DNA of 64,000 nt. Source: Octopus vulgaris (Eukaryota). A model generated the notes under the pieces. That model was not told where the DNA came from, ran no database searches, and worked only from the letters and a program-made list of their open reading frames with translations. Below are positions 5,691 to 64,000 of the stretch, piece after piece. Within the stretch, counting starts at the first letter, position 1; the number at the start of each line of letters is the position of its first letter. The position numbers were made by a program, and so were the translations under genes. The DNA lies in assembly GCA_951406725.2 (NCBI GenBank), contig OX597842.1, forward strand, positions 20,212,001 to 20,276,000. The letters are read 5' to 3'.

Positions 5691-5729
5691 GTTTCTCAAG
5701 TGATAGCATTTATAAGATCTACCAAAGTG
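5691..5729 (+). CDS. Gene A 39-nt microexon (linker/A-strand)
   Basis: tttgttttcatcttttacAG|GTTTC...CAAAGTG|GTAAAT; phase 1-1, (S)FSSDSIYKIYQS(G). Homologous to the microexons at 41477 and 44322. Confidence 0.82.
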
Positions 5730-9272: not shown

Positions 9273-9521
9273 GAACTGCTGAGCTCTATAGAGATCTCAA
9301 CCTTAAGATATATATACCACACATGAAACGACCGGTGGCTTGGATTTGCCAAGATAATAGATATGAATGTGACAGGACATGCGCTGATGGCCCTGACTAT
9401 AAAGTAACACATTTTGGAGGTATCTCCAAGCTTTGGATCAGAAAAGTAACTAAGGAATGTTTGACTTGGAGATTTGAAGACGACAACCTTAAAGTTGGAA
9501 GAATTGATTTGGAGATAAAGA
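9273..9521 (+). CDS. Gene A exon: Ig-like domain A2
   Basis: tttatttcAG|GA at 9271-9274 and donor A|GTAAGG at 9522; 249 nt. GTAELYRDLNLKIYIPHMKRPVAWICQDNRYECDRTCADGPDYKVTHFGGISKLWIRKVTKECLTWRFEDDNLKVGRIDLEIK. Confidence 0.88.
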
Positions 9522-10635
9522 GTAAGGAAATGATTTATAATAATTTCTTTATTAACCACAGAGGGCTAACACAAAGCAAAACATTCGGGAGGGTCCAGTG
9601 TGGGTTTTAGCATGTAAAAAGTCATACAAAGAATAAAAGAAATTCAAAGTAAGATCCCTGATAGTGGGGGGACTTTCAAGGGCCACACGTAAAGAAAGCC
9701 CACAAAATCCAAGGTCTCCCTGACCACCAGGGTGGATACTCTCTCCCAGTCTTTCCTCTCCAATATACAGGTACACTCTGAGAGAAGACCCATTCTCTCA
9801 GGTAATGCTCACCCCTCTCACCCACCTTTCAACAAACTGCTTGGAAGCCAGTACTTACCTCTCCACCCTGATTTTCCTCTTCAAGTGAAACCTGAAAAAG
9901 CTTATTAGGGTTTTGAAAAAATGCCAATTGCTGGTATTCAGCCCTTTCAGACATGTCCACTGTATGATCCCCTTTTGCCATGGGCCCCGAGCAGATAAAA
10001 ACTGGTTGCCCTTCCTGGTTGAAGGAAAGTAGAGGGGCCATCTTCACAATGGACTCAGCTGATAGTTGTATATAATAAGGGTTTCTTTTATTTGCCACAA
10101 GGGCAAAGGATGAGGGGGTCAATACCAAGGTGTGTGTGTGGGGGGGTTATATTCTCTTTCTCTTTTTACTTGTTTCAGTCATTTGACTGTGGCCATGCTG
10201 GAGCACCGCCTTTTGTCGATCAAATCGACTCTAGGATTTATTCTTTGTAAGCCTAGTACTTATTCTATCGGTTCTCTTGCTGAACTGCTAAGTGACGGGG
10301 ACATAGACACCCCAGCATCAGTTGTCAAGCAATGCTAGGGGGACAAACAGACACACAAACACACATATATATATACATATATACGACGGGCTTCTTTCAG
10401 TATCCGTCTACCAAATCCACTCACAAGGCTTTATATAACCAAGCTCATGTGTGCAACATAGTGTTACTGGAAATTTTGATGGGGACTTTTCCTTTAGATC
10501 ACTTTGAAATGGAATTTGTATAACAGAAACAAAAGTATTTTTTAATAGTTTAGTATGAAAATGGTCAAACTTGGGAGATATTACTATTTTTATTAAAAAG
10601 CAAAAGGTATATATTTTATTGTTTGTCAATTACAG

Positions 10636-10760
10636 ATCCGTAACCTGAACCTAATGGACTAACTACACTCGAGATTGTCGGAATCATTTTTGGCTCACTC
10701 TTCCTTGCTGCAATCCTTGTTGGACTCGCTTTGTTCGGCTACAAATATTTTAAGAAATAA
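10636..10760 (+). CDS. Gene A terminal TM exon with early in-frame TAA at 10641-10643 (secreted form or pseudogenised)
   Basis: Acceptor caattacAG|AT CCG TAA. The frame then continues PEPNGLTTLEIVGIIFGSLFLAAILVGLALFGYKYFKK* (TAA 10758-10760). The paralogous codon in gene B is AAA. Confidence 0.78.
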
Positions 10761-11765
10761 ACATTTGTATAAGAACGCTACAATTTGTGTTTTTTTATCT
10801 ATATTTATCCTCTAAAAGGAAAAAATAATTCTATTTATCAGATTAAGACTTTCACTGACTGCATTGGCATAGTTGGTTTTTTAAATAAATTATATCCATA
10901 TTTTAGCAATATTTCTTCCAAAACTCTGCTCCGTCTTTTACTGGGAATTTAAAAATCTTAAAAGCTATTAACTGTATATTTATCAATTTAGGACAACAAC
11001 TAATTTCATTTATATAATTAACAGACAAAACTACATCAATACACTAAACTTGAAATCAATAAATTTGAAACCGAAGGAGCTGAAGGGAAAAACACAAACA
11101 GAAAAGGTCCACTTTTTAAAAAATTATGTCCAGAAAAAGTGAGCGGTAGCAGATTCAGCATGGAAAATTACATGAATATTCCAAATTTGAAAATTTTGAC
11201 TGAATCTTAGAATGCAAAAGAATGTGTATGTGTGTGTGTGGTGTCCCACCAACATGTGCTATTCCAATATAATTGCAATCTACACTTTCTTAAAGGTATT
11301 TCTCAAAATTTTCATTTAAAAATACCCATTTTTCCAGAAGTTATGAAGAAACAAAGTCGGTGGGGTACATTTGCATATGTATACCCATTGCTTTAGCATA
11401 AATATCTTCAATTATAATCAAAGGGTCACTGCTTCCGTAGCCAACGAGAACAAAATCCTTAAGCATAGGAAATGAAGTGTGACCCATTTCTTCCACCTGT
11501 GACATTTGCCACAGTGAAGTTCTTACCATTGTTGGCGCCTTGCCTTACAGAATGCGTTCGGTGATCCCTATAAGGGTACTTGCTGCACCTCCTGTTTGTG
11601 TTTCTTTTGGTTTAGGATTTGTATTTTAATGTGGTATTGTATTATACGTGTATCATGTAAAGACATGTTATATAAGATAAAAACAACAGAAAAATAAGCA
11701 AACAAAATCAAAATATTTATTTATTAAAAAAAATAAAGACTCTTTACAGAATTTGCAAGAAAAAT

Positions 11766-13217: not shown

Positions 13218-14198
13218 GGGATTTTTTTCTAGCAGTGTGATATCAAAATGTCACCCATAATTATGACCCTAGTATCGATCTATTGCATTTCAATCTGCTC
13301 TAGGGTTAGGTTAGGGGTGCGGGGAAGGTATCTTATTTCTTCAGAAATGTTAATAAACCCAATCTGTTTCTTAAACGAGGGACATATTCATACGGCAGAG
13401 AATGTTTTCACCTCAAGAGACGTCATTGATTGGTTGAAATTGCAGAAATTGAAGGAAAAAACAACAAATATCTTATAAACTATGGAATTTTCTCAATAAA
13501 GCCAAGAGAAAAAGATGTTTTATAAACACATTCTACCAGTATACGAAGTTTGAAAGTGCTTAGTTACGTGGAAATTATTTTTAAAAACTGCCGGTCAAAC
13601 CGAAAAGATCCCAAATATCTTACAAACTATAGAATTTTCTCAATAAAACCAAGAGAAAAAGATGTTTTATAAACACATTCTACCAGTATACAAAGTTTAA
13701 AAGTGCTTAGTTACGTGGAAATTATTTTAAAAAACTGCCGGTCAAACTGAAAAGATCCCAAATATCTTACAAATTATAGAATTTTCTCAATAAAGCCAAG
13801 AGAAAAAGATGTTTTATAAACACATTCTACCAGTATACAAAGTTTAAAAGTGCTTAGGTACGTGGAAATTATTTTTAAAAACTGCCGTTCAAACCTAAAA
13901 GATCCCAAATATCTTACAAACTATAGAATTTTCTCAATAAAGCCAAGAGAAAAGATGTTTTATAAACATATTCTACCAGTATACAAAGTTTAAAAGTGTT
14001 TAGTTACATGGAAATTATTTTAAAAAACTGCCGTTCAAACCGAAAAGATCCCAAATATCTTACAAACTATAGAATTTTCTCAATAAAGCCAAGAGAAAAA
14101 GATGTTTTATAAACACATTCTACCAGTATACAAAGTTTAAAAGTGTTTAGTTACGTGGAAATTATTTTTAAAAACTGCCGGTCAAACCGAAAAGATCC
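13218..14198. mobile_element. GGATC-ended MITE with 5 tandem copies of its ~147-bp terminal unit
   Basis: Units end in aaagatcc at about 13611, 13758, 13905, 14051 and 14198. The same element is at 16365-16774, 60130-60315 and 62096-62390. Confidence 0.8.
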
Positions 14199-15629
14199 CT
14201 GACCTGTATTACTGGAAACCTTCCTGAAACCATTCACCACAGATATCACAATGACATGGTTTCTCTCCTAATGAATGAGTCTGTGAGTGGTCAAGTGATC
14301 TACTTCAGAGAGTAATTCACCAAAGAGGAAGGCTCTCAGAATGATGCAGATGCCTCTAATGAGAACCCATTAATGTTGTTTATATTTAAAGGTGCAGGAG
14401 TGTCTGTTAATTACAGAAACAGGATTCTTCTGTCAGGTTCTGTGTAACATCGACTTCAAAATATGATAAATATTGATGACGCTTCTGCAGTAAAATTCCT
14501 CTCATGCCAATGTCCTCTGATATTCTGAAATAAGAGAGAAACAACAGTTTAAGACAGAGTGTAGCTTTGGTTATGACAAAGGCTTGGGGTTCATTTATAT
14601 ACGACATTTACTGCTAGATTCTTTTTAAACAAGGCTTCATGAAAATACAGACTCAATCTTATATGAACATTGTATTTGAGAGGGGTTGAAGGCCTTCAAC
14701 AGATAACATTGTGTAACACAGTTTTTGTCCTTGGGTAGCAACAAAGCAAAATCGTCATTTCTTTTCATTTCTAAATAGAATCAAATAGGAAATAACACTT
14801 ACAAACCAAAGACTAAAATAATAAGACTTTCGTTTCACAGCCATTTGAAAAATCAAGCTGGGTTGAGTATGAAGCTGTGAAAACAGTTACGAGAACGGAA
14901 TTTACCAAGGACTGTGAAGAATTTTTTTTCGCTCTGAGGTAAGTATGTGAATAGGTGTCTTTTACTAATTTTGATGTGGTGAATTCAAATTTCTGAACTG
15001 TCTTGCTCTATCACTTCTAGTTTTTTTTTTTGCTTTCACATATCCCATTTTAATTATACTGCATATAGTTTCAGAATATAATGTGTTTATTTCATCTGTT
15101 ACAAAGGCAAAAAAAAAAAAAAACGGCATAGATACAGAACATTGATGGAAGTAAATTACTTGGATAATACAATAGGCGCAGGAGTGGCTGTGTGGTAAGT
15201 AGCTTGCTTACCAACCACATGGTTCCGGGTTTAGTCCCACTGCGTGGCACCTTGGGCAAGTGTCTTCTGCTATAGCCTCGGGCCGACCAATGCCTTGTGA
15301 GTGGATTTGGTAGACGGAAACTGAAAGAAGCCCGTCGTATATATGTATATATATATATATATGTGTTTGTGTGTCAGTGTTTGTACCCCTAGCATTGCTT
15401 GACAACCGATGCTGGTGTGTTTACGTCCTCGTCACTTAGCGGTTCGGCAAAAAGAGACCAATAGAATAAGTACTGGGCTTACAAAGAATAAGCTCGATTA
15501 AAGGCGGTGCTTCAGCATGGCCGCAGTCAAATGACTGAAACAAGTAAAAGAGTAAAAGAGAGTATACACAAATCACAGTACAGCAGACAGAAGTGAATTT
15601 TTGGGGGGCAATCTTGTATACTTTGTCTC

Positions 15630-32748: not shown

Positions 32749-35140
32749 TACACATATTCCACGATGCACACATTCCGATATGCACATATTCCACGAAGCA
32801 CATTCTGCGATGAACATATTCCCTGATGCACATATTCCACAATACATATATTCCACGTTGCACATATTCCATGAAGTGCATTCCACGATGCACATATTCC
32901 ACAAAGCACATTCCCCGATGCACATATTCCACGAAGCACATTCTGCGATGCATATATTCCACAAAGCACATTCCCCGATGCACATATTCCACGATGCACA
33001 TATTCCACGAAGCACATTCTGTGATGCATATATTCCACAAAGCACATTCCCCGATGCACATATTCCACGATGCACATATTCCACAAAGCACATTCTGCGA
33101 TGCATATATTCCACGAAGCACATTCTGTGATGCATATATTCCACGAAGCACATTCTGTGATGCATATATTCCACAAAGCACATTCCCCCGATGCACATAT
33201 TCCATGAAGCACATTCTGTGATGCATATATTCCACAAAGCACATTCCCCCGATGCACATATTCCACGAAGCACATTCTGTGATGCATATATTCCACAAAG
33301 CACATTCCCCGATGCACATATTCCACGAAGCACATTCTGTGATGCATATATTCCACAAAGCACATTCCCCCGATGCACATATTCCACGAAGTACATTCTG
33401 TGATGCATATATTCCACAAAGCACATTCCCCGATGCACATATTCCACGATGCACATATTCCACGAAGCACATTCTGCGATGCATATATTCCACGAAGCAC
33501 ATTCCCCCGATGCACATATTCCACGAAGTACATTCTGTGATGCATATATTCCACAAAGCACATTCCCCGATGCACATATTCCACAATACATATATTCCAC
33601 AAAGCACATTCTGCGATGCATATATTCCACGAAGCACATTCTGTGATGCATATATTCCACGAAGCACATTCTGTGATGCATATATTCCACAAAGCACATT
33701 CCCCCGATGCACATATTCCATGAAGCACATTCTGCGATGCACATATTCCCTGATGCACATATTCCACAATACATATATTCCACAAAGCACATTCTGTGAT
33801 GCACATATTCCACGAAGTGCATTCCCCGATGCACATATTCCACGAAGCACATTCTGTGGTGCATATATTCCACAAAGCACATTCCACGATGCACATATTC
33901 CACGATGCACATATTCCCTGATGCACATATTCCGCAATACATATATTCCACGTTGCACATATTCCACGAAGCGCATTCCACGATGCACATATTCCACAAA
34001 GCACATTCCCTGATGCACATATTCCACAATACATATATTCCACAAAGCATATTCCGCGATGCACATATTCCACAATACATATATTCCACAAAGCACATTC
34101 TGTGATGCACATATTCCACGAAGTGCATTTCCCGATGCACATATTCCACGAAGCACATTCTGTGATGCATATATTCCACAAAGCACATTCCACGATGCAC
34201 ATATTCCACGATGCACATATTCCCTGATGCACATATTCCGCAATACATATATTCCACGTTGCACATATTCCACGAAGCGCATTCCACGACGCACATATTC
34301 CACAAAGCACATTCCCTGATGCACATATTCCACAATACATATATTCCACGTTGCACATATTCCGCGATGCACATATTCCACAATACATATATTCCACAAA
34401 GCACATTCTGTGATGCACATATTCCACGAAGTGCATTCCCCGATGCACATATTCCACGAAGCACATTCGGTGATGCATATATTCCACAAAGCACATTCCA
34501 CGATGCACATATTCCACGATGCACATATTCCCTGATGCACATATTCCGCAATACATATATTCCACGTTGCACATATTCCACGAAGCGCATTCCACGATGC
34601 ACATATTCCACAAAGCACATTCCCTGAGGCACATATTCTACAATACATATATTCCACGTTGCACATATTCCGCGATGCACATATTCCACAATACATATAT
34701 TCCACAAAGCACATTCTGTGATGCACATATTCCACGAAGTGCATTCCCCGATGCACAAATTCCACGAAGCACATTCTGTGATGCATATATTCCACAAAGC
34801 ACATTCCACGATGCACATTCCACGATGCACATATTCCCTGATGCACATATTCCGCAATACATATATTCCACGTTGCACATATTCCACGAAGCGCATTCCA
34901 CGATGCACATATTCCACAAAGCACATTCCCTGATGCACATATTCCACAATACATATATTCCACGTTGCACATATTCCGCGATGCACATATTCCACAATAC
35001 ATATATTCCACAAAGCACATTCTGTGATGCACATATTCCGCGTTGCACACATTCCACGTTACACATATTCCACGAAGCACATTCCACAAAGCACATACTG
35101 TGTTGCACACATTCCACGAAGCACATTCCACGTTGCACAA
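32749..35140. repeat. 2.4-kb complex minisatellite of 15/17-bp units (gcacatattccacga / gcacattc) with ~306-308-bp higher-order repeats
   Basis: Directly visible tandem structure; it explains the long Cys/His-rich ORFs. Confidence 0.95.
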
Positions 35141-35277
35141 ATTATTCGACGATTCGTTTCACTATAGCAGCTAAATCCATTTGCATATCTTTTTGAATGT
35201 TCCTTATTATTATTATTCATATTTTGAATGTACATTTTTTTTTGTTCACTTTGAAAATGTTTGTATTGTTGCATAGA

Positions 35278-39755: not shown

Positions 39756-39801
39756 ATGGCTAAATGGATCTTGTTCTGCTGTTTGTTTGTAACATTTGAC
39801 C
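39756..39801 (+). CDS. Gene B exon 1: signal peptide
   Basis: ATC ATG G start context; MAKWILFCCLFVTFD + C, then donor GTAAGT at 39802 (phase 1). Splices in frame to the microexon giving MAKWILFCCLFVTFDHLSRA|QKY, a plausible cleavage site after S-R-A. Confidence 0.8.
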
Positions 39802-41476: not shown

Positions 41477-41515
41477 ATTTGTCAAGGGCACAAAAGTATA
41501 ATATCACCCAAAGTG
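41477..41515 (+). CDS. Gene B exon 2: 39-nt microexon
   Basis: ttttcatcttttacAG|AT TTG TCA AGG GCA CAA AAG TAT AAT ATC ACC CAA AGT G|GTAAAT; (H)LSRAQKYNITQS(G). Confidence 0.85.
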
Positions 41516-43499: not shown

Positions 43500-43748
43500 G
43501 ACCTGCTGTGCTCAATAGAAACCTCACCCTTTCGATAACAATACCTGATATGAAACGACCGGTGGTTTGGAAGTGCCACAATTATAAATATGAATGTGAC
43601 AAGACATGCGTTAATAGCTCTTGGTATAAAGTGACTCATTTTGGAGATACCTCCACGCTTTGGATCAAAAAAGTAACTGAGAAATGTTTGACTTGGATAT
43701 TTGAAGATGACAACCTTAATGTTGGAAAAATTGATTTGGAGATAAAGA
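43500..43748 (+). CDS. Gene B exon 3: Ig-like domain B1
   Basis: ttatttcAG|GA ... AAG A|GTAGGA; 249 nt. GPAVLNRNLTLSITIPDMKRPVVWKCHNYKYECDKTCVNSSWYKVTHFGDTSTLWIKKVTEKCLTWIFEDDNLNVGKIDLEIK. Confidence 0.9.
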
Positions 43749-44321: not shown

Positions 44322-44360
44322 GTTTGTCAAGGACACAAAAGTATAACATCACCCAAAGTG
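44322..44360 (+). CDS. Gene B exon 4: 39-nt microexon
   Basis: atcttttacAG|GT TTG TCA AGG ACA CAA AAG TAT AAC ATC ACC CAA AGT G|GTAAAT; (S)LSRTQKYNITQS(G). Confidence 0.85.
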
Positions 44361-46038: not shown

Positions 46039-46287
46039 GACCTGCTGTGCTCAATAGAAATGTCACCCTTTCGATAACAATACCTTATATGGAACGACCG
46101 GTGGTTTGGATGTGCAGCAATTATAAATATGAATGTGACAAGACATGCGTTAATAGCTCTTGGTATAAAGTGACACAGGATGGAAATACCTCCACGCTTT
46201 GGATCAAAAAAGTAACTGAGAAATGTTTGACTTGGATATTTGAAGATGACAACCTTAATGTTGGAAAAATTGATTTGGAGATAAAGA
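46039..46287 (+). CDS. Gene B exon 5: Ig-like domain B2
   Basis: tatttcAG|GA ... AAG A|GTAGGA; 249 nt. GPAVLNRNVTLSITIPYMERPVVWMCSNYKYECDKTCVNSSWYKVTQDGNTSTLWIKKVTEKCLTWIFEDDNLNVGKIDLEIK. Confidence 0.9.
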
Positions 46288-47656: not shown

Positions 47657-47787
47657 ATCCGAAACCTAAACCTCATGGACTAACTACACTTGAGATTGTC
47701 GGAATCATTTTTGGCTCACTGATCCTTGCTGCAATCCTTGTTGGACTCGCTTATTTCGGCTACAAATATTTTAAAAATAACGATTAG
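47657..47787 (+). CDS. Gene B exon 6: Pro-rich stalk, transmembrane helix, short cytoplasmic tail
   Basis: caattgcAG|AT CCG AAA ...; (N)PKPKPHGLTTLEIVGIIFGSLILAAILVGLAYFGYKYFKNND* (TAG 47785-47787). A long hydrophobic run is followed by Lys residues. Total CDS 753 nt = 250 aa plus stop. Confidence 0.88.
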
Positions 47788-50040: not shown

Positions 50041-53000
50041 TAGAAAACTTGAAGACTTGAATTAGACATAGAAGAATGAGAATCATTTCTTGACGAAGAA
50101 CCAAATGAAGAGGAATCTGAAGAGAATTGAACCTGGTACCTCCAAGATGTTATCATGAAGATTCCATAAAAAGATGCTTGTTGTGCCCCAGGTCAAAAGA
50201 TCGTAAGACAAGAAATTTCTTCCAAAAGAAGAGAGTAAAGCTGAGGAAGAAATAAGAGATGATGAGGAGGAACTGAAGCAGATGGCATGTTGCAGACTTC
50301 ACCAGATGATTCTTTAGAAGGAAGGGAAGAAGCTGATGATGAAAATGAACAGCAGACTTCCAGGAACAGAGAAAAACATTTTTGGAGCAAATCAAAATCA
50401 AAATTGCAATCGATCAACATCAATGGAAATTGTAGCTGTGATACCAGTGTCGGTGGCACGTAAGGGAACCATCCGAACGTGGCCGTAGCCAGTGCCGCCC
50501 TGACTGGCCTCCGTGGTGTTGGCACATGAAAAGCACCATTCAAACGTAGCCAATGCCAGCGCTGCCTTGACTGGCTTCTGTGCCGGTGACACATTAAAAG
50601 CACCTACTACACCCACGGAGTGGTTGGCATTAGGAAGGGAATCCAGCTATAGAAACACTGCCAGATCAAACTGGAGCCTGGTGCAGCCTCCTGGCTTCCC
50701 AGACCCCAGTTGAACCATCCAACCCATGCTAGCATGGAAAACAGACGTTAAACGATGATGATGATGATAATGGAACTTTCTGGAAAGGAATTCCCCCATG
50801 CCTTCCACGGCATACACGTGCACAGAACAATTACCAGGATTCCCCAGGACCAAAGAGGAGCAGCAAAACCTGTGTCTGCTGTAAAGGTCTTTGTTTCTCA
50901 GACAAGAACTTCTGAATAAATTCAGAAGCTTGCAGTAATATCTACATTGAAAATAAACAATGAAAATATGAAGATAGGTGAAAAGAGACACTTAGGTGCA
51001 GGAGTGGCTGTGTGGTAAGTAGCTTGCTTACCAACCACATGGTTCTGGGTTCAGTCCCACTGCCTGGCATCTTGGGTGAGTGTCTTCTACAATAGCCTGG
51101 GGCCAACCAAAGCCTTGTGAGTGGATTTGGTAGACGGAAACTGAAAGAAGCCCGTCGTATATATGTAGGCGCAGGAGTGGCTGTGTGGTAAGTAGCTTGC
51201 TTACCAACCACATGGTTCCGGGTTCAGTCCCACTGCCTGGCATCTTGGGCAAGTGTCTTCTACTATAGCCTCAGGCCAACCAAAGCCTTGTGAGTGGATT
51301 TGGTAGACGGAAACTGAAAGAAGCCCGTCGTATATATGTAGGCGTAGGGAGTGGCTGTGTGGTAAGTAGCTTGCTTACCAACCACATAGTTCTGGGTTCA
51401 GTCCCACTGCGTGGCATCTTGGGCGAGTTTCTTCTACTATAGCCTGGGGCCAACCAAAGCCTTGTGAGTGGATTTGATAGACGTAAACTGAAAGAAGCCC
51501 GTCGTATATATGTAGGCATAGGAGTGGCTGTGTAGTAAGTAGCTTGCTTACCAAACACATAGTTCCGGGTTCAGTCCCACTGCGTGGCATCTTGGGCGAG
51601 TTTCTTCTACTATAGCCTGGGGCCAACCAAAGCCTTGTGAGTGGATTTGATAGACGTAAACTGAAAGAAGCCCGTCGTATATATGTAGGCGTAGGAGTGG
51701 CTGTGTGGTAAGTAGCTTGCTTACCAACCACATAGTTCTGGGTTCAGTCCCCACTGCGTGGCATCTTGGGCGAGTGTCTTCTACTATAGCCTGGGGCCAA
51801 CCAAAGCCTTGTGAGTGGATTTGATAGACGTAAACTGAAAGAAGCCCGTCATATATATGTAGGCATAGGAGTGGCTGTGTAGTAAGTAGCTTGCTTACCA
51901 ACCACATAGTTCCGGGTTCAGTCCCACTGCGTGGCATCTTGGGCGAGTGTCTTCTACTATAGCCTGGGGCCAACCAAAACCTTGTGAGTGGATTTGATAG
52001 ACGTAAACTGAAAGAAGCCCGTCGTATATATGTAGGCGTAGGAGTGGCTGTGTGGTAAGTAGCTTGCTTACCAACCACATAGTTCTTGGTTCAGTCCCAC
52101 TGTGTGGCATCTTGGGCGAGTGTCTTCTACTATAGCCTAGGGGCCAACCAAAGCCTTGTGAGTGGATTTGATAGACGTAAACTGAAAGAAGCCCGTCGTA
52201 TATATGTAGGCATAGGAGTGGCTGTGTGGTAAGTAGCTTGCTTACCAACCACATAGTTCTGGGTTCAGTCCCACTGCGTGGCATCTTGGGCAAGTGTCTT
52301 CTACTATAGCCTCAGGCCAACGAAAGCCTTGTGAGTGGATTTGATAGACGGAAACTGAAAGAAGCCCGTCGTATATATGTAGGTGTAGGAGTGGCTGTGT
52401 GGTAAGTAGCTTGCTTACCAACCACATGGTTCTGGGTTCAGTCCCACTGCGTGGCATCTTGGGCAAGTGTCTTCTATACTATAGCCTCAGGCAAACCAAA
52501 GTCTTGTGAGTGGATTTGATAGACGGAAACTGAAAGAAGCCCGTCGTATATATGTATATAAACGTGTGTGTTTGTGTGTCTATGTTTGTGCCCCCAACAT
52601 CACTTGACAACCGATGCTGGTGTGATTACATCCCCGTAACTTAGCAGTTCGGCAAAAGAGACCGATAGAATAAGTACGAGGCTTACAAAGAATAAGTCTT
52701 GGGGTCGATTTGCTCGACTAAAAGGCGGTGCTCCAGCATGGCCGCAGTCAAATGACTGAAACAAGTAAAAGATTAATGAAAGGGAGATGAAAGCTACAAT
52801 AGGACTTCTTTATCTGTTGGGAGTTTTACAGGCAACCGAACGAATATGGAAGATGTTTGGGCAACGGACGGTACAGGAATTAAAATTTTTCCAGCAACTA
52901 TATATTTGCAGAAGTTTCATTTCTCGCTGGGGTCTCTGAGGTTTGATGACATCCACACCTGAGCTGAAAGGAGGCGAGAGGATAAGATTGCACCTTTTAG

Positions 53001-54944
53001 AAAGTCCTTTGAGAAATTTATGGCTAAGTGTATCTTGAATTATAATGTCTCAGTGTATGCGACAGTAGATGAAATGTTGGCTGCCTTTACAGAGAACTAT
53101 CCATTTTAAACCAGCAAAATATGGCATAAAAATTTTTAATTTTGGCCGATGCTAAAACTTTCTATGCATCATATATGGAGGTCTACTTGGGGAAACAAGC
53201 AGAAGGCCCTTCTATAGGTAATTCAGGAGCACCAGTGCTAGTGGAGGCGCAATGGTCCAATGGTTAGGGCAGCGGACTCGTGGTCAGAGGATCGCGGTTT
53301 TGATTTCCAGACCAGGCGTTGTATGTGTTTATTGAGCGAAAAACACCTAAAGCTACACAAGGTTCCGGCAGGGGATGGTGGGGACCCCTGTTGTACTCTT
53401 TCGCCCCAACTTTCTCTCACCTTTTCTTCCTGTTTCTTGTCCCCGACTTCCTACGCAACCACTGAGCCTGGATGCGCATTCATCCATCCGTCGATGCTCT
53501 CGGTGTCGGGGGTTGACCTGCTTTCTCTCCTGCGGGTCTTACAAATAGCAAAAGAACCCCTTTCGGACTTCTCCCACAAGGACGGAGATCACTACACTCA
53601 ACAGCAACAGCAGCAGTGGTAAAATGGTTGGGGTCTCATATAAAAGGGTCTGGAAGAAATATTACCATGGATAATTGGTTTACAAGTTATGGATTTAGAG
53701 TTAATCTCTTGGAGAATTATAGATTAACATTTGTTGACCCTTTCAGAAAGAACAAGATAGAACTTCCCCCTCAGTTTGTTGCCACAAGAGGCAGAACTGA
53801 ATATACAAGCTTGTTTGGTTTCCAGAAGGATGTTACACTGACCCCATATGTTCCCACGAAAGGTAAAAATGTCGTCCTATGGAGTACAATGCATCATGAT
53901 GCTGCAATTGATGTAAGTACAAAAGAAAAAGAAAACCAGAGATTAGAACCTTCTACAACATTACTAAAGGAGGGGTTGGACCCGTGGTGGATCAATTGTG
54001 TTCCATGTACGATGTTTCCAGAAATACTCGATGCTGGCCAGTTACAGTTTTCTTCACCATACTCAATGTTGCAGGAATAAATGCATACAATATGTTCATG
54101 GCAAACCCTCAAACAGCTATCAGGGTCTGAAAGTTTCTGAGGGAATCGGGACTGAAGTTGGTGGAGGACCAAATTCATCATTGCAAGACAAAACCCATCC
54201 ATATTTGAGGAAAGACATGGAAAATAAGATTCGACATTTCTCAGCATCTAAAGTATTACCTCCAAGATGGCATGTAAAAAGCACCATCCGATTGTGGCCG
54301 TTACCAGCCTCCCCTGGCACCTGTGCCGGTGGCACGTAAAAAGCACCCACTACACTCATGGAGTGGTTGTCGTTAGGAAGGGCATCCAGCCATAGAAACA
54401 CTGCCAGATAAGACTGGGCCTGGCACAGCCTTCTGGCTTCCCAGACCCCAGTTGAACCGTCCAACCCATGCTAGCATGGAAAGCGGACGTTAAACGATGA
54501 TGATGATGATGTTATCATGAAGATTTCATACAAAGATGGTCATTATGCTCCAGGTCAAAAGATCACAAAACAAGAAATTTCTTCCAAAAGTTCTCCAAGC
54601 CAATCTGCTTGCAACATGCGATGCACATCTGCATCGACTTCTTTGCTCAGAGTGATGAGGATGAGAGTGCAAACAATGAGTAAACAGTGAATATGAAAGG
54701 ACCACTCTCCCCTCCATAAGATACTTTTATCTAGTTTCACTTTCATTTTCAAAGAGTACTCGCTCGTTTTTGTTTACATGTTAAACACATTATATCAGAA
54801 TATGGTTTTTGGTAATATTATTGCTTAGGAACACATCAAAATCATAGAAAATATTAAAAAATAAGCTAAAACTATTAATGGGGTTCTCCATACCCCAACC
54901 ACACCAATGATGAAAAATACAGAACTACCCCACCAGTGGGTTAA
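50040..54944 (+). mobile_element. Degenerate piggyBac transposon interrupted by four SINE insertions
   Basis: Pieces LRFDD, DKIAPFR, TVDEML, GSGRNITMDNWFTS, RKNK, LWSTMH; right end ...ccaccagtGGG|TTAA at 54938-54944. A second right end is at 55785-55791; the left TIR was not found. Confidence 0.88.
50994..52775 (+). repeat. Head-to-tail array of 9 SINE-A 5' halves (~173 bp) ending in one full tail
   Basis: Units start near 50994, 51167, 51340, 51514, 51687, 51861, 52034, 52208 and 52381. Confidence 0.92.
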
Positions 54945-56739: not shown

Positions 56740-58580
56740 TTTCTCTTTTTACTTGTTTCAGTCATTTGACTGTGGCCATGCTGGAGCACTGCCTTTAATT
56801 GAGCAACTCGACCCCGGAACTTATTCTTTGTAAGCCCAGTACTTATTCTATCGGTCTATTTTGCCGAACCGCTAAGTAACGGGGACATAAACACACCAGC
56901 ATCGGTTGTCAAGCAATGCTAGGGGGACAAACACACACGCACATATATATATATATATATATACATATATACAACAGGCTTCTTTCAGTTTCCGTCTACC
57001 AAATGCACACACATGGCTTTGGTCGGCCCGAGGCTATAGTAGAAGACACTTGCCCAAGGTGCCATGCAGTGGGACTGAACCCGGAACCATGTGGTTGGCA
57101 ACCAAGCTACTTACCACACAGCTGCTCCTACACATATATATATATATACATTCGATGGGCTTCTTTCAGTTTCCGTCTACCAAATCCACTCACAAGGCTT
57201 TGGTCGTCCCGAGGCTATAGTAGAAGACACTTGCCCAAGGTGCCATGCAGTGGGACTGAACCCGGAACCATGTGGTTGGTAACCAAGCTACTTACCACAC
57301 AGCCGCTCCTACACCTATATATATATATACATACGATGGGCTTCTTTCAGTTTCCGTCTACCAAATCCACTCACAAGGCTTTGGTCGTCCCGAGGCTATA
57401 GTAGAAGACACTTGCCCAAGGTGCCATGCAGTGGGACTGAACCTGGAACCATGTGGTTGGTAAACAAGCTACTTACCACACAGCCACTCCTACACCTATA
57501 TATATATATACATACGATGGGCTTCTTTCAGTTTCCGTCTACCAAATCCACTCACAAGGCTTTGGTCGTCCCGAGGCTATAGTAGAAGACACTTGCCCAA
57601 GGTGCCATGCAGTGGGACTGAACCCGGAACCATGTGGTTGGTAAACAAGCTACTTACCACACAGCCACTCCTACACCTATATATATATATATACATACGA
57701 TGGGCTTCTTTCAGTTTCCGTCTACCAAATCCACTCACAAGGCTTTGATCGTCCCGAGGCTATAGTAGAAGACACTTGCCCAAGGTGCCATGCAGTGGGA
57801 CTGAACCCGGAACCATGTGGTTGGTAACCAAGCTACTTACCACACAGCCGCTCCTACACCTATATATATATATACATACGATGGGCTTCTTTCAGTTTCC
57901 GTCTACCAAATCCACTCACAAGGCTTTGGTCGTCCCGAGGCTATAGTAGAAGACACTTGCCCAAGGTGCCATGCAGTGGGACTGAACCCGGAACCATGTG
58001 GTTGGTAACCAAGCTACTTACCACACAGCCGCTCCTACACCTATATATATATATACATACGATGGGCTTCTTTCAGTTTCCGTCTACCAACTCCACTCAC
58101 AAGGTTTTGGTCGTCCCGAGGCTATAGTAGAAGACACTTGCCCAAGGTGCCATGCAGTGGGACTGAACCCGGAACCATGTGGTTGGTAAACAAGCTACTT
58201 ACCACACAGCCACTTCTACACCTATATATATATATACATACGATGGGCTTCTTTCAGTTTCCATCTACCAAATTCACTCACAAGGCTTTGGTCGTCCCGA
58301 GGCTATAGTAGAAGACACTTGCCCAAGGTGCCATGCAGTGGGACTGAACCCGGAACCATGTGGTTGGTAAACAAGCTACTTACCACACAGCCACTCCTAC
58401 ACCTATATATATATATATACATACGATGGGCTTCTTTCAGTTTCCGTCTACCAAATCCACTCACAAGGCTTTGGTCGTCCCGAGGCTATAGTAGAAGACA
58501 CTTGCCCAAGGTGCCATGCAGTGGGACTGAACCCGGAACCATGTGGTTGGTAAACAAACTACTTACCACACAGCCGCTCC
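56740..58580 (-). repeat. Head-to-tail array of 9 SINE-A 5' halves (~181 bp), opposite orientation
   Basis: gggcttctttcagtttcc...ccacacagcc..cctac repeats with ~181-bp period from 56975 to 58580; one tail at 56740-56975. Confidence 0.92.
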
Positions 58581-59353
58581 TAAACAGTATTCAAACATTT
58601 GTTACAGTCAGATACAAGTTCGTTTTCTTTGTCACTGAGTTATTGTCTGAATTACTTTCACTTTCATAAACAGAAATATCTCATTCGTTTTCACACAACA
58701 GGATTTTGTTTTTGCTGAATATTTTGTTCGATTTTATTTCTATGTCTTCAGACAACAAATTCTGATTTACTCGACAACATAAAACAGTTATTGGTCTCTA
58801 ATCAGTATTAAAAAAGTCTCAAAACCACAATGTAGAAAATATGTGTTTGCGTGCGTTTGTGTGGAGGGTGGGGGGGGATCTTAAGAAATTCACAGAGGTC
58901 GGATATCTCATCAAATATCAGAATTTCATCTGTCTTTACATTCTGGGTTCATATCCTGCCAAGGTCGACTTTGCCTTCCATCTTTCGGGGATCAATGAAA
59001 TAAATACTAATTGAACAATGGTGTCTGATGTAATTGACCTATCTGCTCCTGGGTAAAAGTAAAAAACCTGAACACCTCTGCCAGGCCATGTTGGAACAGT
59101 GTGGTTCAGATATACATTTATTACATATATATATATATATATATATATCATCATCATCATCATCATCATTTAGCGTCCGCTTTCCATGCTAGCATGGGTT
59201 GGATGGTGCAACTGGGGTCTGGGAAGCCAGAAGGCTGCACCAGGCCCAGTCTGAATTGGCAATGTTTCTATGGCTGGATGCCCTTCCTAATGCCAACCAC
59301 TCCATGAGTGTAGTGGGTGCTTTTTACGTGCCACACGACGCTGGCAAACGGCC

Positions 59354-62553: not shown

Positions 62554-64000
62554 GGATCTTTTCCGTTTGACCGGCAGTTTTTTAAAATAATTCCCACGTA
62601 ACTAAACACTTTTAAACTTCGTATACTGGTAGAATGTGTTTATAAAACATCTTTTTTTTCTTGGCTTTCTTGAGAAAATTCTATAGTTTGTAAGATATTT
62701 GGGATCTTTTCGGTTTGAACGGCAGTTTTTTTAAATAATTTCCACGTAACTAAACACTTTTAAACTTCGTATACTGGTAGAATGTGTTTATAAAACATCT
62801 TTTTTTTTCTTGGCTTTATTGAGAAAATTCTATAGTTTGTAAGATATTTGGGATCTTTTCGGTTTGAACGGCAGTTTTTTTAAATAATTCCCACGTAACT
62901 AAACACTTTTAAACTTCGTATACTGGTAGAATGTGTTTATAAAACATCTTTTTTTTCTTGGCTTTCTTGAGAAAATTCTATAGTTTGTAAGATATTTGGG
63001 ATCTTTTCGGTTTGAACGGCAGTTTTTTTAAATAATTTCCACGTAACTAAACACTTTTAAACTTCGTATACTGGTAGAATGTGTTTATAAAACATCTTTT
63101 TTTTCTTGGCTTTATTGAGAAAATTCTATAGTTTGTAAGATATTTGGGATCTTTTCGGTTTGAACGGCAGTTTTTTTAAATAATTCCCACGTAACTAAAC
63201 ACTTTTAAACTTCGTATACTGGTAGAATGTGTTTATAAAACATCTTTTTTTTCTTGGCTTTCTTGAGAAAATTCTATAGTTTGTAAGATATTTGGGATCT
63301 TTTCGGTTTGAACGGCAGTTTTTTTAAATAATTTCCACGTAACTAAACACTTTTAAACTTCGTATACTGGTAGAATGTGTTTATAAAACATCTTTTTTTT
63401 CTTGGCTTTCTTGAGAAAATTCTATAGTTTGTAAGATATTTGGGATCTTTTCGGTTTGAACGGCAGTTTTTTTAAATAATTTCCACGTAACTAAACACTT
63501 TTAAACTTCGTATACTGGTAGAATGTGTTTATAAAACATCTTTTTTTTCTTGGCTTTATTGAGAAAATTCTATAGTTTGTAAGATATTTGGGATCTTTTC
63601 GGTTTAAACGGCAGTTTTTTTAAATAATTTCCACGTAACTAAACACTTTTAAACTTCGTATACTGGTAGAATGTGTTTATAAAACATCTTTTTTTTCTTG
63701 GCTTTCTTGAGAAAATTCTATAGTTTGTAAGATATTTGGGATCTTTTCGGTTTGAACGGCTGTTTTTTTAAATAATTTCCACGTAACTAAACACTTTTAA
63801 ACTTCGTATACTGGTAGAATGTGTTTATAAAACATCTTTTTTTTTCTTGGCTTTATTGAGAAAATTCTATAGTTTGTAAGATATTTGGGATCTTTTCGGT
63901 TTGAACGGCAGTTTTTTTAAATAATTTCCACGTAACTAAACACTTTTAAACTTCGTATACTGGTAGAATGTGTTTATAAAACATCTTTTTTTTCTTGGCT
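62554..64000. repeat. ~148-bp satellite derived from the MITE terminus (about 10 copies, runs off the window)
   Basis: Each unit starts ggatcttttc(g/c)gtttga; reverse complement of the units at 13465-14198. Confidence 0.95.

Follow-up and report, generated by a model that had tools for sequence, protein, structure and literature searches.

A stop codon ahead of the transmembrane segment marks a likely secreted class in an octopus cluster of Ig-fold genes

What does a stop codon immediately ahead of an intact transmembrane (TM) segment mean for an octopus gene whose neighbour carries a sense codon at the same place? The question is raised by a 64,000-nt stretch of Octopus vulgaris DNA, C29:20212001-20276000 (the window; coordinates without a prefix count from its first base), in which two genes with Ig-like domains, A and B, lie on the plus strand. 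The last exon of gene A opens at its acceptor as AG|AT CCG TAA (10636-10643, the TAA being 10641-10643), and the equivalent exon of gene B as AG|AT CCG AAA (47657-47664). The exon upstream of 10636 joins in phase 1, so that the protein of gene A ends ...IKNP-stop, and beyond the TAA the frame stays open across the TM segment and a short basic tail. An earlier note, made from the letters of the window, had seen here, among other possibilities, a soluble decoy beside its membrane receptor. The base difference on which it built is confirmed, the TAA being found at three loci, in a sister-species protein model and in contigs from three studies. Its description of the downstream frame as open and nearly identical in the two genes is right for the openness and for the TM stretch, where 5 of 90 bases differ, and wrong for the tails, as a 1-nt deletion in gene B gives it a tail unlike that of gene A. 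Our own view is that gene A is intact and likely encodes a secreted three-domain Ig-fold protein, which we infer to be a soluble recognition molecule of a fast-evolving family.

Is gene A otherwise a sound gene? Gene A and its close paralogues begin with a signal-peptide exon of 46 nt and close with a last exon; between these stand one to four exon pairs, of 39 and 249 nt, each pair encoding one domain. The first four exons of gene A (signal peptide, short exon 1, domain exon 1 and short exon 2) lie upstream of the window, at C29:20204013-20211300. Within the window follow Ig-domain exon 2 (1840-2088; 249 nt, phase 1-1, with an extra cysteine in an NGC motif), a 39-nt short exon encoding the first strand of domain 3 (5691-5729; joined to 9272 in an X8 contig), the terminal Ig-domain exon, of a type we call TAELY (9273-9521), and the coding part of the last exon (10636-10643). 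Gene B lies wholly inside the window, with its signal-peptide exon at 39756-39801, short exons at 41477-41515 and 44322-44360, domain exons at 43500-43748 and 46039-46287, and the coding part of its last exon, with AAA for the stop and an intact TM segment, at 47657-47787. The splice sites of gene A are canonical and its frames open, and the possibility that it is broken upstream can be set aside. Its predicted product of 305 aa consists of a signal peptide and three Ig-fold domains and ends two residues past the final Ig strand; after the signal peptide, which carries I5N and was assessed by hydropathy only, no hydrophobic 19-mer exceeds 1.37. The earlier prediction of complete Ig-like domains in a secreted ectodomain is thus supported, the exons being intact and secretion being predicted from them.

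The window also contains repeats. At 32751-35143 lies a minisatellite with units of 14-16 nt, both strands of which have long open frames, and a similar repeat makes up the spurious N-terminus of an annotated protein of the family, P0011. Tandem arrays of 147-181-nt units lie at 13465-14199, 50993-52556, 56953-58586 and 62554-64000, two of them made of a dispersed repeat common in the introns of the cluster described below. A 187-codon open stretch at 53517-54080 seems to resemble a piggyBac-type transposase fragment.

The TAA lies close to the end of the transcript. An AATAAA at 10756-10761 overlaps the old stop codon of the TM form, and a loose end of 25 A behind 10780 in run X1, 19 nt past the AATAAA and assignable to the cluster copies as a group, marks a poly(A) site about 137 nt from the TAA. 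Stops in last exons escape nonsense-mediated decay (NMD) as an established rule; the stop of gene A is within its last exon, and therefore NMD is not expected, just as the earlier note had argued. The AATAAA over the old stop is kept in 11 of 12 paralogues, gene B having lost it through its 1-nt deletion, and the overlap is a further constraint on the tail sequence.

Is the stop-bearing exon used? The five runs that we searched, out of 23 listed, consist of assembled contigs, presumed to be RNA, in which rare variants are lost in assembly. The joint from 9521 to 10636 (GT..AG) is present in three of four runs (X1, X6 and X8); it was not seen in X7, and X19 yielded no match, but neither is counted as evidence. 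In these three, which come from three studies, the letters past the joint read ATCCG TAA CC, unedited; two X8 contigs cross the joint, and the stop letters were read from one of them. The expression that the earlier note had wanted sought is therefore found, in the form of spliced presumed-RNA contigs carrying the stop exon. One X8 contig is identical to gene A across 9376-9453, a span that includes gene A's private loop. Within the domain exon the X1 junction contig differs from gene A 9 times and the X6 one 7 times, yet in both the A-type last exon follows. The listed differences are states of two paralogues, g20018342 or g19828508, and a sister-type domain exon joined to an A-type last exon indicates that other individuals hold other mosaics. 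The loop itself (9410-9424) is hypervariable, with four sequences among gene A, these two sisters and an O. sinensis model. We considered A>G differences in contigs at 9305 and 9352 as editing and rejected them, the same letters being DNA states of paralogues.

How many such genes are there? The earlier note had envisaged a two-gene pair, but a genome search with the last exon finds 12 close copies in C29 19.75-20.33 Mb, plus five more distant ones. We modelled the 12 genes from 664 kb of sequence, window included, and our counts over 12 exclude two more genes at the right edge of the cluster and 40 kb there. In every one of the 12 the splice sites are AG/GT and the frames are open. Their last exons fall into three classes, five with a TM segment, four with the TM segment truncated by TGA, and three, gene A among them, with a TAA ahead of it. 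The five TM genes stop 5-8 residues past the TM segment, within the same exon, and have no ITIM/ITAM cytoplasmic exons. The TGA genes (g20325453, g20149494, g19983089 and g19955009; L005, L003, L004 and L002) are all single-domain, and a GGA within the TM segment has become TGA. On inspection their ends consist of NGS or SGS, a 5-residue spacer and an 18-residue hydrophobic stretch (hydropathy 2.35-2.79) without a tail, which makes them candidate GPI precursors. Judged by sequence, one shared last exon thus likely yields TM, GPI-anchored and secreted forms.

Several further features surround this cluster. At its edge, two family genes (C29:20403402 and 20421021) have a different, GPI-signal-like last exon, which O. 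sinensis models use as an alternative end. Some genes have another kind of signal-peptide exon, of MDILK type, upstream of them (C29:19972820, 19989725, 20156389 and 20391190), which suggests alternative first exons. The Ig family as a whole is far larger than the 19.75-20.33 Mb cluster, with 79 domain-exon matches genome-wide; others on C29 are at 0.33-0.36, 7.2-7.6, 16.5, 18.2-18.6, 19.6, 22.4-23.4 and 27.4 Mb, and there are more on C2, C4, C5, C14, C16, C23 and C28.

Where did the TAA come from? By pattern search, the same TAA is present at exactly three loci of the genome, gene A (305 aa), g20018342 (305 aa) and g19828508 (401 aa). Five distant outgroup last exons (L013-L017) all carry AAA at this position, so the TAA is derived. 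The three stop genes form one lineage. Within the cluster the TAELY terminal domain is confined to them (clade support 1.0), their inner domains group together (support 0.988), and the 400 nt of intron sequence just ahead of the stop unite them (support 95/93). No such grouping is given by the 5' part of that intron or by the downstream flank, and grouping by some segments and not by others fits mosaicism. Two extra cysteines, sited in the two domains preceding the terminal one, are present in all three stop genes and in none of the nine others. At the amino acid level the domains of gene A are 60-73% identical to those of gene B, 71-80% identical to their best membrane-type match and 93-94% identical to those of the other stop genes; as an exception, domain 3 of g19828508 is 89% identical to domain 1 of gene B. 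Genes A and B are thus not the near-identical ectodomains of a paired receptor and decoy, and the idea of gene A as the soluble partner of B is not supported. Since gene A is not a near-copy of B, any decoy role would be class-wide. Nor does the peptide TCADGPDYK, proposed earlier as specific to A, distinguish it, since 12 of the 24 domain exons contain this peptide, among them exons of membrane-type genes.

Are these genes under selection? The stop-gene clades have 57 variable sites, all of which lie outside the 21 positions of Cys/Trp codons (P 0.003). Nonsense changes are likewise not seen within these clades, a count that is weak alone (P 0.02-0.07). Omega is 1.9 across 10 stop-gene domains (LRT against 1, P 0.015), about 2.0 across all 22 domains (P 8e-5) and 2.3 for the 12 membrane-type domains, values to be read with the knowledge that recombination inflates dN/dS tests. 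Divergence is 0.118 in exons versus 0.055 in adjacent introns. Taken together, these results agree better with genes that function and diversify than with pseudogenes.

How has gene A come to have an open TM frame past its stop? Gene B and g19802479 can be told from the two other stop genes at 31 sites, and at each we asked to which side gene A belongs. The first 3 are of stop-gene type, the next 12 (10659-10741) of TM type and the last 16 of stop-gene type again, and none of 200000 permutations was as clustered as the run of 12. The relic is only 2 of 90 bases off g19802479, with no private change, and 14-18 off its own sisters. Twelve consecutive TM-type sites between flanks of stop-gene type identify the relic as a conversion patch of about 85 nt in the 3' UTR, derived from a TM-type paralogue of the B or g19802479 kind. 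The two sisters carry the same stop, and past it g20018342 shows a 12-nt deletion and a TGA in frame, g19828508 His and Ser within its TM segment. The open frame in gene A does not, then, point to readthrough or editing, and in clusters of this kind an intact TM segment behind a stop can be a patch left by gene conversion.

What sort of domain do these exons encode? An AlphaFold2 model of P0011, built from 45 homologous rows, is a confident beta-sandwich, with pLDDT 90-97 over the domain core. The best match by VIA has Z 11.2 (teleost pIgR; rmsd 2.5, 94 aligned), with many ties near Z 10. In Foldseek, 458 of at least 500 matches have E<=0.001, and among the matches listed most are antibody or Ig chains. 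The domains are therefore predicted to have an Ig fold, V/I-set like. They share with V/I-set Ig domains (pIgR, CD300, NCAM2, titin) the predicted beta-sandwich and the strand C Trp (W23 of the domain exon, conserved in at least 90% of 44 homologues and located in model strand E120-124), but unlike these they lack the canonical B-F disulphide. The model strands 107-112 and 163-167 are without Cys, and four cysteines lie elsewhere, at 124, 131, 135 and 161. Over the 44 homologues Cys positions 25 and 62 co-occur (Fisher P 3e-6, not kinship-corrected) and positions 32 and 36 are nearly invariant, suggesting two non-canonical disulphides. In a model of the sister-species isoform that ends at the stop, the last strand is complete ahead of NP. 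The five-domain AlphaFold2 model has pTM 0.29, and the arrangement of the domains was not read from it. Pfam gave no family for three single domain exons and placed I-set above its cut-off solely on the whole five-domain protein; the nearest ESM Atlas clusters, a lead only, are unnamed and mollusc-rich, then V/I-set.

Do other octopuses have such genes? The closest named proteins are uncharacterised O. vulgaris, O. sinensis and O. bimaculoides predictions; gene A itself was absent among 11 protein matches. A profile search gave 52 matches at E<=0.001, and the 10 looked up were nine octopus records and one unnamed; the weak tail of that search includes generic multi-Ig proteins. The O. sinensis loci LOC115225115 and LOC115225116 belong to the same Ig family, and isoform X6 (XP_036369926.1) ends ...IKNP after the same type of terminal domain as gene A. 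Among the 14 O. sinensis RefSeq isoforms with a TAELY domain, one ends at NP and 13 join an intact TM exon. These models chain exons over what are separate genes here, each with its own signal-peptide exon, and so the TM-joined isoforms may be artefacts; current annotations merge separate genes of the cluster. Among titles and the starts of abstracts we found no paper on this octopus Ig family, though supplementary tables of octopus transcriptome or single-cell papers may list its genes under other identifiers, and there was no full-text mention of three LOC identifiers.

Could gene A nonetheless be something other than a gene for a secreted protein? One locus might give two products, the terminal domain being spliced either to the stop exon or to a downstream TM exon such as that of gene B, or stop-less alleles might segregate. 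The 13 TM-joined isoforms of the sister species agree with such an arrangement, as does the position of the TM exon of gene B, 37 kb downstream of gene A's on the same strand and in the same phase. A unitig boundary in X1 falls exactly at 10641/10642 and may mark a second letter at 10641, that is, a stop-less A-type last exon; it could equally be an out-branch at 10672. Short-read cross-mapping could explain the chained RefSeq models, the three junction contigs whose letters were read all show TAA, and in both X1 and X6 a unitig runs unbroken from within the terminal domain exon past the stop, so that we regard this alternative as unlikely. We find it doubtful, too, that the three stop genes are transcribed pseudogenes of recent origin, in which a loss-of-function stop was carried on by duplication. 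Birth-and-death clusters do hold pseudogene copies, and the three genes differ by only about 4% in their flanking introns. Ten of ten stop-gene domain exons are intact, however, with their Cys/Trp codons untouched, omega is above 1 and not equal to 1, the extra cysteine pair is specific to the class, and the stop is common to the sister-species model; the very recent pseudogenisation suggested in the earlier note is accordingly improbable.

One might think instead that the stop leaks, readthrough or double A-to-I editing (UAA to UGG, Trp) restoring the membrane form. RNA editing is extensive in coleoids, the relic has kept a TM frame without private change, and contigs would hide low-level editing. 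The frame is, however, that of a conversion patch, and the sisters' TM segments are broken or contain His and Ser. Moreover, a single edit would yield only UAG or UGA, both adenosines are predicted to be unpaired (0.71-0.90 across three folds), no complementary stretch longer than 13 nt lies within 27 kb, and the three junction contigs whose letters were read, in which editing at a low level would be invisible, have an unedited UAA. No in-frame acceptor bypassing the stop of gene A was found, and a literature search on UAA recoding in cephalopods gave unrelated matches only. A leaky stop, and with it the recoding that had been put forward as a speculative alternative, thus seems very improbable. 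As for an assembly or base-calling error at 10641, or an allele private to one animal, a TAA found at three loci, in the protein model of a sister species and in contigs of three studies leaves either with practically no chance.

We return to the reading of gene A as a member of a secreted class. A probable path is that an ancestral AAA changed to TAA once and that the stop-bearing gene then duplicated. The stop lineage would have acquired a terminal domain of its own and two additional cysteines, the latter allowing disulphide-linked, multivalent forms. Positive selection would be diversifying its exposed residues, in keeping with the binding of a partner that itself changes, for instance microbes or non-self cells. 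Once released, the protein would compete with the membrane forms as a class, or complement them, rather than act as the private decoy of B.

How does this compare with known systems? Molluscan FREPs, related Ig-lectin proteins and chordate VCBPs are secreted, diversified Ig-domain proteins with proposed recognition roles. These proteins have a fibrinogen, lectin or chitin-binding domain at the C-terminus; gene A, in contrast, ends directly past its final Ig domain, and its siblings include membrane-bound forms. A closer parallel in design is the mammalian CEA family. In outline, its CEACAM and PSG genes form a tandem Ig cluster with TM, GPI-anchored and secreted members that change rapidly, and their soluble forms have been proposed as decoys (PMC2832619, PMC5856374). 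In that family stops in the TM exon give GPI forms, nonsense or splice changes give secreted forms, and conversion links the members, according to the account in PMC2832619. The octopus cluster resembles it, at the level of sequence, in having TM, GPI-like and pre-TM-stop genes and a conversion patch. It differs in that the octopus TM genes have no ITIM/ITAM tail, the cysteine pattern is another one, a domain spans two exons, and the secreted and the GPI-like class each go back to a point stop of their own in a single shared last exon. According to PMC5856374, horse CEACAMs whose TM exon contains a stop are predicted not to be GPI-linked, which advises caution in our reading of the TGA paralogues. 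CEACAM1 and CEACAM7 chains score Z 9.9 and 9.6 at 8-9% identity, tied with unrelated Ig domains. There is no sign in the structural comparison of CEACAM homology beyond the fold, and the shared design would be convergent.

What does the cluster mean for octopus biology? The stop genes are real and most likely a functional secreted subfamily, representing a known design in a new lineage, within an undescribed octopus Ig cluster. A bolder view, to which we give only a modest chance, is that octopuses have independently built a recognition system like CEACAM/PSG. Two single-base stops would set three locations, conversion would reshuffle ectodomains and ends between copies and individuals, and the secreted class would be disulphide-linked multivalent binders in blood, mucus or skin, acting as antibody-like innate recognisers or as decoys. 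Little is known about immune and self-recognition receptors in cephalopods, and the cluster offers a concrete family, expressed and under positive selection, in which putatively secreted, GPI-like and TM members differ by single bases. Class-specific peptides and expression tests can address whether octopuses have soluble, diversified Ig recognisers.
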